Positions 2,147-10,500 of a DNA stretch of 64,000 bases are shown one piece after another. The stretch covers positions 928,001 through 992,000 of the forward strand of contig CAWCAG010000007.1 of the NCBI GenBank assembly GCA_963793425.1, read 5' to 3'. Origin of the DNA: an uncultured cyanobacterium. Lineage in GTDB: Bacteria > Cyanobacteriota > Cyanobacteriia > Cyanobacteriales > CAWCAG01. The notes under the pieces are model-generated. The model had not been told where the DNA came from. It saw nothing but the letters and a program-made list of their open reading frames with translations, and made no database searches. Numbering within the stretch: the stretch's first letter is position 1; each line of letters begins with the position of its first letter. The position numbers were made by a program, and so were the translations under genes.

Positions 2147-2203
2147 ATGTTTTCCAGCTACCAGCATTTTTACTTTTGGTTTAAATTGGTTCGCCGCGAG
2201 TGA
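2147..2203 (+). CDS. Attenuator leader peptide 1, MFSSYQHFYFWFKLVRRE
   Basis: ATG 2147 to TGA 2203; 7/18 codons Phe/Tyr/Trp including the run FYFWF; followed by a terminator; upstream of DAHP synthase. Confidence 0.8.
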   Translation: MFSSYQHFYFWFKLVRRE

Positions 2204-2230
2204 ATCTAGCTTAGTCTGGAATCTCCCGGT

Positions 2231-2261
2231 GGACTGTAGAACTGAAACTACAGTCTTTTTT
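2231..2261 (+). terminator. Intrinsic terminator of attenuator 1
   Basis: GACTGTAG (2232-2239), 8-nt loop, CTACAGTC (2248-2255), then T6. Confidence 0.85.
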
Positions 2262-2285
2262 ATTGCTCAACAATTGCTAAATCCC

Positions 2286-2342
2286 ATGAGTTTCTACTTT
2301 TATCACTTTCACTTTTTTTGGACTAGAGAAAGTTCCGGGTAG
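2286..2342 (+). CDS. Attenuator leader peptide 2, MSFYFYHFHFFWTRESSG
   Basis: ATG 2286 to TAG 2342; 8/18 codons Phe/Tyr/Trp plus 2 His; its 3' end is complementary to the 5' arm of the next terminator. Confidence 0.82.
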   Translation: MSFYFYHFHFFWTRESSG

Positions 2343-2366
2343 ATAGCCTCATGCCATTATTTTATC

Positions 2367-2400
2367 AAGCCTGGAACTAAATCAAGTTCCGGGCTTTTTT
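2367..2400 (+). terminator. Intrinsic terminator of attenuator 2
   Basis: AAGCCTGGAACT (2367-2378), loop AAATCA, AGTTCCGGGCTT (2385-2396, one G-U pair), T run 2395-2400. Confidence 0.87.
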
Positions 2401-2438: not shown

Positions 2439-3296
2439 ATGTTGAATGCCAAACTCGCTCTCAAATCACAATTCCAACCCACCAGTCTCATCAACATATC
2501 GGATCAAGTTACTATCGGTGGTTCGGAAATTGTCATTATTGGTGGCCCCTGTGCTGTAGAAAATTTAGAGCAAATGGAGACAGTTGCGGAAAAATTGATA
2601 CCAGATTCAGTACAAGCTTTACGGGGTGGAGTATATAAACCCCGTACTTCTCCCTACTCTTTCCAAGGATTAGGACAAGAAGGATTAGATATTTTCGCTG
2701 CTATTAAAAACCGCTGGAATATATCTATTGTTTCCGAAGTTATGGCTGTCAGTCAAATTGAAGAGATGAGCGCTTGTGTGGATATGTTTCAAGTTGGTAG
2801 CCGTAATATGCAAAACTTCGATTTGTTGAAAGCTTTAGGGCAAGCCGGGAAGCCAGTATTGCTGAAACGAGGTTTGGCTGCCACCCTCGAAGAATTTATT
2901 TTCGCAGCAGAATACATTCTAAGTCACGGTAACCCCCAAGTTGTTTTTTGCGAAAGAGGTATCCGCAGCTTTGATAATTACACTCGCAATGTTTTAGATT
3001 TAGGTACGGTAGCAGCTTTGAAACAGTTAACTCACTTACCTGTAATTGTTGATCCTTCCCATGCTGCTGGGAGAAGGGAATTAATTGCTCCTTTGGCTAA
3101 GGCTGCGATCGCCTGTGGTGCTGATGGTTTGATTGTTGAATGTCACCCCAACCCTACTGAGTCTGTTTCTGATGCTAGCCAAGCTCTTGCTTTAGAAGAG
3201 ATGGTGAGTCTGGTTGATGCTCTCAAACCTGTTGCCACAGCAGTAGGGCGTACCATAGCAACTTCACCACGTAGTCGTGAACTTTCTTTAGTTTAA
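2439..3296 (+). CDS. aroF: DAHP synthase type I-beta, catalytic domain only
   Basis: GGPCAVE, RGGVYKPRTSPYSFQGLG, GSRNMQNF, LKRG, CERGIR, DPSH. Confidence 0.93.
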   Translation: MLNAKLALKSQFQPTSLINISDQVTIGGSEIVIIGGPCAVENLEQMETVAEKLIPDSVQALRGGVYKPRTSPYSFQGLGQEGLDIFAAIKNRWNISIVSEVMAVSQIEEMSACVDMFQVGSRNMQNFDLLKALGQAGKPVLLKRGLAATLEEFIFAAEYILSHGNPQVVFCERGIRSFDNYTRNVLDLGTVAALKQLTHLPVIVDPSHAAGRRELIAPLAKAAIACGADGLIVECHPNPTESVSDASQALALEEMVSLVDALKPVATAVGRTIATSPRSRELSLV

Positions 3297-4202: not shown

Positions 4203-4247
4203 CCTCTAAATGGAGGGCAAGTTTGAAGCTTGCCCTCCATTTAGAGG
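4203..4247. terminator. Perfect 19-bp inverted repeat, likely terminator after the small basic ORF
   Basis: cctctaaatggagggcaag, 7-nt loop, cttgccctccatttagagg. Confidence 0.7.
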
Positions 4248-5557: not shown

Positions 5558-6799
5558 GTGAGCGCCACTACCAACACTGCGGTTTATACCGACTCTCAAC
5601 AACCTGATGCTTTAGGAAGATTTGGACGTTTCGGGGGTAAGTATGTACCGGAAACTTTGATGCCGGCTTTAAGTGAGTTAGAAACTGCTTATAGTCAATA
5701 TCGTCAAGATCCTGACTTTGTTAAAGAGTTACAAGGACTACTGCGAGATTATGTCGGTAGACCTAGCCCTTTATATTTTGCCCAACGCCTTAGCGATCTC
5801 TACACCAAATCTGACGGTACAGGGCCGCAAATCTATCTTAAACGAGAAGATTTAAACCATACCGGGGCCCATAAAATCAATAATGCTTTGGCTCAAATTT
5901 TGTTGGCTAAGCGTATGGGAAAGCAACGTATTATTGCTGAAACCGGGGCAGGACAACATGGCGTAGCTACAGCAACAGTGTGCGCCCGCTTTGGTTTGTC
6001 ATGTGTAATTTACATGGGGGAACAGGATATGGAACGCCAAGCCCTCAATGTTTTTCGGATGCGCTTGTTAGATGCAAAAGTGCAACCGGTAACGGCCGGT
6101 ACTGGTACTTTAAAAGATGCTACTTCAGAAGCGATTCGAGATTGGGTTACTAATGTGGAGAATACTCATTATATTCTCGGTTCTGTAGCTGGGCCTCATC
6201 CTTATCCGAGAATTGTTAGAGATTTCCATGCCGTTATTGGTCAAGAGACTCGCCAGCAATGCCAGGAAAGATGGGGTGGATTACCTGATATTCTCATGGC
6301 TTGCGTAGGGGGTGGTTCCAATGCCATGGGTTTATTTGCTGAATTTGTTAAAGATGCTTCTGTAAGGATGATTGGTGTCGAAGCAGCAGGAGAAGGTACG
6401 GAAACCGAGAAACACGCTGCCACCCTGACTAAAGGCCGTCCAGGGGTGTTACATGGGGCAATGAGCTATTTATTACAGGATGGTGAAGGGCAAGTTGTTG
6501 AAGCTCATTCGATTAGTGCTGGGTTAGATTATCCTGGAGTTGGGCCAGAACATAGTTACCTCAAGGATACCCAACGGGCAGAATATTACAGCGTTACTGA
6601 TGCTGAAGCAGTGGAGGCTTTTGTGCGGGTATCGAAGCTAGAAGGAATTATCCCTGCTTTAGAAACTGCCCATGCTTTTGCTTATTTAGAAACTCTTTGT
6701 CTTCAGTTGACTGGCAGCCCTAAAATTGTAATTAACTGTTCGGGACGCGGGGATAAGGATGTGAGGACGGTGGCTAAGTATTTAGGGAAGGAATGGTAA
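5558..6799 (+). CDS. trpB: Tryptophan synthase beta chain
   Basis: [39 protein letters not shown]. Confidence 0.98.
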
Positions 6800-7576: not shown

Positions 7577-10500
7577 ATGAAGCTTGGCTTAAACTTGACC
7601 CGTACTTCTATTATTATCTGTATTGCTATTATTTTGGTTGCCTTTGGGAGCCTAATTTTATTTACTAGTTTTACCCAGGATGAGCAAGGAGATAAGTTAA
7701 ATCCTCCCCCAGTTGAACTTACTCAGGAATGGCAATACCGACTAGGAGATTCTCCTGTAAATGAGAATGGGATTCCTGTTTGGACTCTGGAAAAGGAATC
7801 TGCCCAACCTTGGCAAGCCTTGGAAGTTCCTGGTAAGTTAAAGATTAGTTCCGGGGAAAATTTTGTTTGGTTGCGAACGACATTACCAGAAAAAACTTGG
7901 CCTTATCCTGGTCTTTATATTCGAGGTATTCCTAACTTATTACAAACTTATATTGAAGATAGTTTAAGCTATGTTTACTATGAGTTGAATCAAGATGGAA
8001 GTTTGCAGCTTAAAGAGGAAAAATGGCCTGTTATTCCCCTAGGAGATGAGTTTCAAAATAAATCCCTGTTTTTTAGAGTTTATGTTGGTGATCGCCAAAC
8101 TCTCAAAGTAGGTTTTTTCGGTAGTACTCTGATTGGTTCTCAACCTGAACTAGTGAAGAAGTTTGTTAAACAGAGTATAGATAAGCTTATTCTTGGCTGC
8201 CTATTTGTTTTTTGTGGTTTTGTACCCTTGTTATTTGCGTTGGTTAAGGGTACAGAATCTCTCTATTTGTCCTTTGGTATTTTAACTCTTGTCATTGGCA
8301 TTTACACAATTTCCGGAGCGGAACTAGCCCGCTTTTTAATTTATAATCCTCAGCTATGGTCGTTCCTTCATTATACTAGTTTCCATCTGATACCCTGCAT
8401 CGTTATTATCTTTTTCGAGCAGGTTTTTGGGTCTGGTCATAGGAACATTATTCGCAAACTATGGCAGATTCAACTAGGTTACACAGCTTGTGTGTTGGTT
8501 TTAGCGAGTAGTGGTTTAGTCGCTTGGTATTATACTTTTTATCCCACCCAGCTTTCAGGCATTATTAGTGCTTTTATTTTAATTTTTACAGCCTTAAAGG
8601 TTAAAGATAGAGATAGTCTAGAAATCAAGTTATTCACCGCTGGTTTCACAGTTTTTCTGATTACGGTTATCCACGATATTTTAAGCTATGTCTTCTTATC
8701 ATTCCCTTGGTATTTAAGCATTTATCCTTGGGGAATGTTTGTTTTTATCATTTTCTTAGCCTTTATTTTAGAGAGACGTTTCACCGAAGCGAAAAAGCAA
8801 CTACAAAAGTATGCTGTGGAAATGGAAGTAAAAAACACAGCTTTGGAGCGTTTGGACAAGCTTAAAGATGATTTTCTCGCTAATACATCCCACGAACTAA
8901 GAACTCCCCTTAATGGCATTATCGGTTTAGCAGAATCCTTAGTAGATGGAGTGACAGGAAAACTTCCGAACCAAACTTTATTTAACCTCTCACTAATTAT
9001 TTCTAGCGGTAAGAGACTTACTCAATTAGTGAACGATCTATTAGATTTTTCCCGATTAAAACATCAAAATATTCAACTGCAACTTAAAAATATTGGTATG
9101 CGAGAAATTGCTGAGGTTGTTTTAACTATTTCTCGTAGTTTAGTTGGGGATCGAGATATCCAGTTAATTAATAAAATATCTCCCGATTTGCCTCTAGTTA
9201 TTGCTGATGAAAATCGAGTTCAACAAATTCTTTTTAACTTAGTTGGTAATGCTATTAAGTTTAGTGAATCCGGGACAGTAGAGGTTAAAGCTAAAGTAAC
9301 TGAGCAATATCTATCTATAGCTGTTACGGACAAAGGAATTGGCATACCGGCTAATAAATTAAACCGTATTTTTCAACCTTTTGAACAGGCTAATGGATCA
9401 ATTTCTCGGCAGTATGGTGGTACAGGTTTAGGTTTGGCGGTGACGAAACAATTAGTTGAACTTCATCAAGGAGAAATTGAAGTCAGGTCAGTTTTAGGGG
9501 AAGGTTCTCGCTTTGTTTTCACCCTCCCTCTCGCTACAGAATTAGAAGATAGAGAAGATAGACAAACTGAAGTTAGTATTCCCCAAGACTTATCTGAGAT
9601 TAGTGGGTTACTTATCAACAATGATCAAGAAGAAATTGCTGATTCGGAAATTATTGTTCAACCAAGTCCAGGAAAATTCAAAGTTTTAATCGTTGATGAT
9701 GAACAGGTGAACCGCCAGGTTTTAATCAACTATCTTTCGCTGCATAATTATGCAATTACCCAAGCTACCAACGGACCAGAAACTCTCGATTTAATTAACG
9801 AAGGCTTCAAACCAGATATTATTTTACTTGATGTCATGATGCCGAAAATTACCGGGTATGAAGTCTGCCAGCAAATTCGCCAAACTTATTCCCCAGCAGA
9901 GTTGCCAATTATTTTATTAACCGCCAAAAATCAAGTTTCTGATTTAGTAGAAGGTTTCTTATATGGTGCTAATGATTATATGGCTAAGCCAATTTCTAAA
10001 AATGAGTTACTAGCCAGAATGAAAACTCATATTCAGCTTGCCAAAATCAATCTGGCTACTAGTCGTTTCGTACCCTACGAATTTTTAGAATTTTTGGGTA
10101 AAGAGAGTATTTCTGATGTCAACTTAGGGGATCAAGTTCAACAAGAGATGACTATTCTTTTTTCTGATATTCGTTCTTTCACAACTATCTCAGAAAGAAT
10201 GTCTCCGAAGGAAAACTTTGATTTCCTTAATGCTTATTTAAGCAAGGTTGGGCCAGTTATTCGTAACCATCGCGGCTTTATTGATAAGTATATTGGCGAT
10301 GCTATTATGGCTTTATTTCCTGAAAGTAGTGACGATGCTTTACAAGCAGCAATGGCGATGCAAAGACAGGTAGAAATTTATAACGAAGAAAGTATTAGCA
10401 AAGGCTATCCTCGTATTAATATTGGCATTGGTTTACATACCGGAACTTTGATGTTAGGAACTATTGGCGAAGAAGAAAGAATGGAAAGTACAGTAATTTC

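Follow-up and report, generated by a model that had tools for sequence, protein, structure and literature searches.

A candidate tandem attenuator with Phe, Tyr and Trp codons upstream of a short DAHP synthase gene in cyanobacteria

The locus and its occurrence among cyanobacteria

The window, by which we mean the whole 64-kb stretch of DNA that was analyzed, contains a plus-strand gene (2439-3296) for a short, 285-aa type I-beta DAHP synthase, the enzyme that opens the pathway to the aromatic amino acids, preceded by AAGGA at 2423-2427 and, further upstream, by two predicted attenuators in series. A putative sigma-70 promoter lies at 2089-2117 on the same strand (-35 TTGACT, 2089-2094; extended -10 TGnTAGTGT, 2109-2117) and was missed by a consensus scan because its -10 matches at only three of six positions. 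The first unit consists of uORF1 (2147-2203, plus strand, 18 codons, MFSSYQHFYFWFKLVRRE), which would act as the leader of attenuator 1, a predicted antiterminator (2188-2235, plus strand) in which 2188-2198 pairs with 2225-2235 and occupies the base of terminator 1, and terminator 1 itself (2231-2262, plus strand), a 9-bp stem at 2231-2256 followed by a U run. The attenuator 1 fold (2175-2247) has a predicted energy of -24.5 kcal/mol with a z score of -3.11. The second unit, which bears the repeat described below, consists of uORF2 (2286-2342, plus strand, 18 codons, MSFYFYHFHFFWTRESSG, stop TAG at 2340-2342) and terminator 2 (2367-2400, plus strand). Eight of the 18 uORF2 codons specify Phe, Tyr or Trp, with an aromatic run on the plus strand at 2292-2321 that ends on Trp12 (2319-2321). 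Elsewhere in the window, a minus-strand ORF at 599-1774, divergent from the promoter, presumably resembles the DNA polymerase III beta clamp, a plus-strand ORF at 5558-6799 resembles what we take to be tryptophan synthase beta, and an inverted repeat of 20 pairs (4203-4247) separates two minus-strand ORFs.

The 285-aa protein scored above the cut-off for TIGR01361 and PRK08673. It carries PF00793 only, lacking an N-terminal ferredoxin-like regulatory domain; a second, 352-aa DAHP synthase of this genome has PF18152 in addition. From this domain content we infer that the short enzyme is a feedback-insensitive copy; the paralogue would be the feedback-controlled housekeeping enzyme. The long paralogue is followed, about 750 bases downstream, by a fragment of a DAHP synthase C terminus with 46% identity and one internal stop (L003; G000:C9:1067264-1067512, minus strand). 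Downstream neighbours of the short enzyme gene vary among homologous loci, the largest common family being found at 10 of 56 and on the opposite strand, so the gene is probably monocistronic. Control of an operon was considered and rejected, as no constant downstream neighbours were found across the 56 loci.

Homologous loci were chosen by protein search alone (21 of 61 relatives, and 43 of 251 genomes of the phylum at E up to 1e-95), giving 56 distinct short-form loci, the window included. Under a strict peptide rule, unit 1 was recognized at 47 loci, unit 2 at 49 and both at 41. When the rule was widened to variants met in the strict-rule output, uORF1 had a counterpart at 50 of the 56 loci, uORF2 at 54, both were present at 48, and every locus had at least one; because many of the loci are close kin, such counts overstate independence. 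Rough consensus peptides are M..SYFYFWF..VHRE for uORF1 and MT..S.WFYGFYFWP..SSG for uORF2. The promoter pattern TTGAC-N17-19-TAnnnT precedes uORF1 in 46 of 50 homologues, compared with 0 of 50 for controls within the gene, and the TG of the extended -10 is present in 45 of these 46. No comparable uORF was seen for nine long-paralogue loci (L024-L032) or for L002 in the 500 nt examined, which lie partly within the gene.

All 50 uORF1 counterparts and 49 of 54 uORF2 counterparts have an in-frame ATG, which leaves five uORF2 without one. In the stretch examined of L012, L191, L192 and L198, no obvious in-frame ATG was seen for uORF2, and the aromatic run and helices are intact; the same holds for the start of uORF1 in L191, L192 and L198. 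Unusual start codons are possible at such ATG-less uORFs. A Shine-Dalgarno interaction of -3.5 kcal/mol or better was found for only 3 of 50 uORF1 and 9 of 49 uORF2, versus 50 of 56 enzyme genes. Some loci carry a single unit, namely unit 1 alone (L010, L184) or unit 2 alone (L017, L021, L023, L154, L179), and these are natural controls for the tandem design. In L174 uORF1 is stopped prematurely, and in L154 the uORF2 start is disrupted.

A covariance model of unit 2 gave one match each in 49 of 141 genomes of the class and none in the other 92. Thirty loci were returned, 21 of them from genomes outside the model, and all 21 precede the short enzyme gene. A wider regulon was not found, with one model match per positive genome under strict filters (26 candidates scored per genome) that weak copies may escape; the window's own genome likewise gave no further leader of the unit-2 kind. 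In a GTDB pattern scan, the enzyme lay in the stored flank at 36 of 42 cyanobacterial loci versus 0 of 73 in other phyla; the named relatives are cyanobacteria such as Nostoc, Microcoleus, Coleofasciculus and Laspinema. The scan was loose and covered 8 of 64 parts; at 83 of its 120 loci the flank lacked the enzyme, and most of these were chance matches from outside cyanobacteria.

Alternative helices of the second unit

The initial annotation had proposed that the last codons of uORF2 duplicate the 3' arm of terminator 2, and its coordinates are exact: AGTTCCGGG occurs at 2331-2339, where it encodes the Ser-Ser-Gly that precedes the TAG of the 18-codon ORF, and again at 2385-2393, and both copies are complementary to GCCTGGAACT at 2369-2378. 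The repeat is in fact 10 nt long when the preceding A (2330/2384) is included, and in this form occurs only twice in the window; the 9-mer has one further copy at 7847 and another on the minus strand. Following the four-segment layout of the Escherichia coli trpL and pheL attenuators, segment 2 (2331-2346, plus strand; core 2331-2340, extension 2342-2346) would be the 5' strand of an antiterminator. Segment 3 (2362-2378, plus strand; extension 2362-2366) would be the shared strand, with a core at 2369-2378 that doubles as the 5' arm of terminator 2, a 12-bp stem (2367-2378/2385-2396) with a U run at 2395-2400. The predicted antiterminator (2331-2346/2362-2378) has an energy of -16.4 kcal/mol (z -3.64) and the terminator (2367-2396) one of -18.7 kcal/mol (z -6.48), values reached by 0 of 200 shuffles in either case.

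This arrangement stands out within its own genome. When the 3' arm of each of 176 terminator-like hairpins was compared with its upstream 60 nt, the longest common word was 9 nt for this terminator and never exceeded 6 nt for the remaining 175. By duplex energy with the terminator 5' arm, the present case ranks second of the 176. Among 128 hairpins with a short ORF just upstream, uORF2 and uORF1 rank first and second in their fraction of Phe, Tyr and Trp, and no aromatic uORF-terminator pair apart from these two stands out. Of the 144 synonymous ways to encode Ser-Ser-Gly, the native one yields the most stable antiterminator. An Rfam search of the region at E up to 5 gave five weak matches, all far from gathering score and none to a leader family, and the Trp and Phe leaders gave no match even at this threshold. 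Gathering score was thus reached by no leader family (Trp, Phe, His and others), T-box or riboswitch model.

Covariation in an alignment of homologues, which the initial annotation had proposed as a check, was assessed on 53 distinct unit-2 sequences (after removal of the identical L176) and 47 distinct unit-1 sequences (after removal of three), and the 2:3 antiterminator pairing was found to be kept through double changes. In the 2:3 helix, 93.9% of 527 cells are paired and 10 are double-change cells, a number reached by 0 of 500 shuffles (mean 1.5), and slid registers are 15-57% paired. In terminator 2, 94.9% of cells are paired and 24 are double-change cells. Four sequences (L178, L181, L183 and L186) have 2:3 U-A pairs turned to C-G with an altered peptide end (Ser to Pro, Cys or Thr), the ends in place of Ser-Ser-Gly being Ser-Pro-Gly, Cys-Pro-Gly, Thr-Pro-Gly and Cys-Ser-Gly. 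Since these double changes alter the peptide while segment 4 mostly still has U opposite the new G (as G-U pairs), segment 3 appears to track segment 2, not the peptide. Double changes in the core U-A columns are confined to these 4 of 53 sequences, which require a minimum of three changes on the enzyme tree, with a single clade not rejected (p-AU 0.19). Among 20 held-out loci, 4 and 2 further double-change cells occur in the same two columns; this count covers 20 of 21 loci, with L209 omitted as not anchored and L210 kept although mis-anchored. At one column of the 2:3 helix, 15 of 53 sequences lack a pair.

Codon usage at the end of uORF2 is similarly restricted. The Gly of Ser-Ser-Gly is GGG in 51 of 52 sequences, versus 170 of 1148 Gly codons in the enzyme genes, and the Ser codon is TCC or TCT in 48 of 52 (CCC in three, TTC in one). 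The stop codon is displaced in L164 and L179 and segment 2 is retained. In L009, L012 and L171, the terminator has A-A mismatches where the 2:3 helix is fully or partly paired. The initial annotation had extended the helix through GATAG (2342-2346) and TTATC (2362-2366); these lie where it placed them and the extension is real in this genome, but it is lineage-specific. Inner 2:3 pairs of some form occur in all 53 homologues (3-10 pairs), with covariation not above chance (5661 of 20,000 permutations, 23 lineages). In unit 1, terminator 1 is paired in 374 of 376 cells over eight columns, and the antiterminator has double changes in several columns, a richer covariation than in unit 2 (one column has A-U in 39 of 47 sequences and G-C in 6, and a different column has four pair types).

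A further helix, the 1:2 stem, is predicted to join the start of uORF2 to its stop (2286-2352, plus strand; 2286-2290/2348-2352, 2293-2299/2337-2343 and 2305-2310/2328-2333), where it would hide the start codon together with the greater part of segment 2. Its stability in single sequences is weak, at -13.9 kcal/mol with a z score of only -0.94 in the window and a median z of -0.9 among the homologues, where 6 of 53 fall below -2. RNAalifold on the 53 sequences recovered the terminator only; the 1:2 stem, whose register varies, is not in that consensus. When each segment was paired with its own partner or with that of another genome, in fixed windows across 23 lineages, own pairing gave -10.1 versus -8.1 kcal/mol (0 of 20,000 permutations). 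Three control pairings gave 18,950, 13,086 and 3857 of 20,000, and the 20 held-out loci gave 93 of 20,000. Just after the uORF2 stop, a conserved GTCATG-like word (2347-2353; columns 65-71 of alignment A2) complements the uORF2 start (Met-Thr); in the window it reads CTCATG, with a Met-Ser start. The word could mark a polymerase pause. Sequence and comparison together indicate three mutually exclusive predicted helices in unit 2: a putative 1:2 start-to-stop stem, the 2:3 antiterminator and the 3:4 terminator. The initial annotation had taken such exclusive pairing as independent evidence that the uORF is regulatory; it is strong comparative evidence, though not a demonstration of regulation.

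Aromatic codons, spacing and the modelled ribosome

Phe, Tyr and Trp all occur within the last 16 residues of uORF2 in 54 of 54 homologues, and the exact order FYFW is kept in 41 of 50 uORF1 and 41 of 54 uORF2. The initial annotation had placed the stall in a run that includes His; this residue is not conserved, any His being present in the last 16 residues of only 9 of 54 uORF2, and a histidine-sensing role was rejected on this count. In the last 16 codons of both uORFs, Phe is encoded by TTT 295 times and by TTC 20 times, compared with 86:190 in the enzyme genes of the same loci, and the Tyr codons of the uORFs are evenly split between TAT and TAC.

Segment 2 is separated from the last aromatic codon by 9 nt in 46 of 53 sequences. 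With the ribosome assumed to cover 8 nt beyond the A-site codon, at least six pairs of the 2:3 helix are free in 52 of 53 sequences when the ribosome stands on the last aromatic codon, in 1 of 53 when it has moved two codons on, and in 0 of 53 when it is at the stop. For window RNA free to 2391, a ribosome placed on Phe3, Phe8 or Trp12 left 9.9 expected 2:3 pairs in the fold; with the ribosome at the stop, 0 expected 2:3 pairs and 6.2 terminator pairs were obtained. The proposal that 2331-2346 is left free by a stalled ribosome and covered by one at the stop is therefore supported by the modelled-ribosome folding, and also by the covariation. On the full-length RNA at equilibrium, the terminator has a probability of at least 0.98 in every modelled ribosome state, and the states are separable only by folding at nascent lengths, so the switch must be kinetic. 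Attenuator switches usually are.

Without translation, window RNA is predicted to form the 1:2 stem first, with 20.9 expected pairs at lengths 2355-2366. Under equilibrium folding at intermediate lengths, the 2:3 helix is still allowed in 23 of 53 naked leaders. The initial annotation had expected removal of the ATG to give read-through. Given a covarying start-to-stop stem that is predicted to form first, our modelling instead predicts that this change should favour termination or be ambiguous, an uncertain outcome and not clean read-through.

A ribosome-coupled reading, its rivals and published attenuators

The reading that we favour, at a probability of roughly 85% from comparison of the sequences, is that the repeat is the antiterminator of a ribosome-coupled transcription attenuator of the classical type, in which a stall on Phe, Tyr or Trp codons would let transcription continue. 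The uORF would be translated, and under a shortage of charged tRNA-Phe, -Tyr or -Trp the ribosome would stand at or before Trp12 with segment 1 melted and 2331-2346 free. The 2:3 helix would form once 2378 exits the polymerase and would be kinetically trapped while the U run is crossed. When charged tRNAs are plentiful, the ribosome would reach Arg14 or the stop and cover segment 2, and the 3:4 helix would terminate transcription near 2400. With no ribosome, the 1:2 stem would form first and termination would be favoured. The attenuator is likely both tandem and multivalent, with two units that each carry Phe, Tyr and Trp codons. The catalytic-only copy may be kept off by two gates on one signal, with less leak and a steeper response.

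The same helices could also read a different kind of stall, in which the nascent FYFW peptide arrests the ribosome on a free aromatic metabolite. The FYFW order in both uORFs is stricter than tRNA sensing requires, and Tyr is free between TAT and TAC, so the residue matters. In TnaC-like arrest-peptide leaders, the peptide is conserved as far as a fixed stall codon. Here FYFW is conserved, but the residues past Trp and the position of the stop are variable (the frame or the stop is shifted in L012, L164, L166, L179 and L186), while the nucleotide gap to segment 2 is kept. The N termini differ in length and sequence, and the near-exclusive use of TTT for Phe points to selection at the codon or RNA level. 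We regard an arrest peptide as unlikely. That TTT preference also makes the stretch U-rich, and a switch that needs no ribosome can be imagined in which a protein or small ligand binds the conserved U-rich stretch and picks the helix, the reading frames being a by-product. The general lack of Shine-Dalgarno sequences, the uORF2 copies without an ATG and the suggestion, in the accessible text of PMC7858274, that transcription without coupling may be widespread among bacteria would fit such a switch. It is very improbable, however, given the in-frame ATG kept in all uORF1 and nearly all uORF2 counterparts, the third-position variation of Tyr and triplet-sized indels that preserve the frame, the identity of the encoded residues with the products of the pathway, a 9-nt gap that suits the edge of a ribosome, and the lack of an Rfam family at gathering score.

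Least probable of all, in our estimate, is that the terminator is a constitutive leak-limiter or the source of a trans-acting small RNA or peptide, with the repeat a relic of duplication. The thermodynamic dominance of the terminator on full-length RNA is compatible with a leak-limiter, and trans-acting attenuator RNAs and peptides are described in other systems. A relic would not hold its pairing through double changes over many families, nor would it hit the best of 144 encodings. A trans role could exist in addition to attenuation.

The ribosome-coupled reading has partial precedents. An aroR-aroF attenuator of Corynebacterium glutamicum was reportedly described by Neshat et al. in 2014. 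As the accessible text of two later papers has it, ribosome stalling on its Phe-Tyr-Phe leader peptide under Phe limitation raises transcription (PMC11802643, PMC7356990). Compared by description and not by sequence, it is the most alike, with an aromatic leader peptide before a DAHP synthase gene in both, but it belongs to another phylum, has one leader and, in those accounts, shows no Tyr effect. The present locus has two successive units, both with codons for all three aromatic residues, before a catalytic-only type I-beta enzyme. The E. coli trpL and pheL attenuators, as outlined in PMC11802643, share with the present element their regulatory codons, 1:2, 2:3 and 3:4 helices and intrinsic terminator; in that outline they differ in having one amino acid and one unit each, before terminal-pathway genes. 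Two short ORFs per leader, each linked to an attenuator, are also reported for mgtM and mgtP of Salmonella mgtCBR, but these are described as sensing different signals, ATP and proline, additively, whereas the same aromatic cluster occurs twice here (PMC3641672, in the parts available). Brewer et al. 2021 list the uORFC-13-1 motif, a predicted uORF and terminator before Acholeplasma aroF, and thus likewise upstream of a DAHP synthase gene; as presented in the sections available, it differs in having a single unit with one or more Phe codons and 24 representatives, which come from Acholeplasma and environmental DNA, all predicted only (PMC8632094). In cyanobacteria, a Synechocystis Ribo-seq preprint suggests the 45-aa sml0012 before aroQ as an attenuator peptide (bioRxiv 10.64898/2025.12.20.695498), again a small ORF before a shikimate-pathway gene. 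That pair is closely spaced and concerns another gene, with a suggested translational action and, in the accessible portion of the preprint, no terminator switch described. We found no published description of the present element, which closed-access papers, attenuator databases or supplements of motif surveys might contain; it is not described in the accessible parts of PMC1173090, PMC7693272 or PMC7858274.

In the literature searched, we met no report of a classical-type attenuator from this phylum. According to the available text of Korolev et al. 2016 (PMC4833913), there were no reliable data on attenuation in cyanobacteria. We consider it probable that cyanobacteria do use ribosome-mediated attenuation, with two multivalent units in series gating a feedback-free DAHP synthase across many families and replacing allostery. 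If true, this would be the first firm case of attenuation in these organisms. It would require synchrony of polymerase and ribosome on a uORF that lacks a Shine-Dalgarno sequence and would thus offer a direct test of coupling in cyanobacteria. Two gates on one signal would be unlike the published tandem case with different signals. For metabolic engineering, the locus would offer a sensor of aromatic amino acids and an enzyme that is naturally free of feedback, and the element would account for the retention, by many cyanobacteria, of a second DAHP synthase that lacks the regulatory domain.
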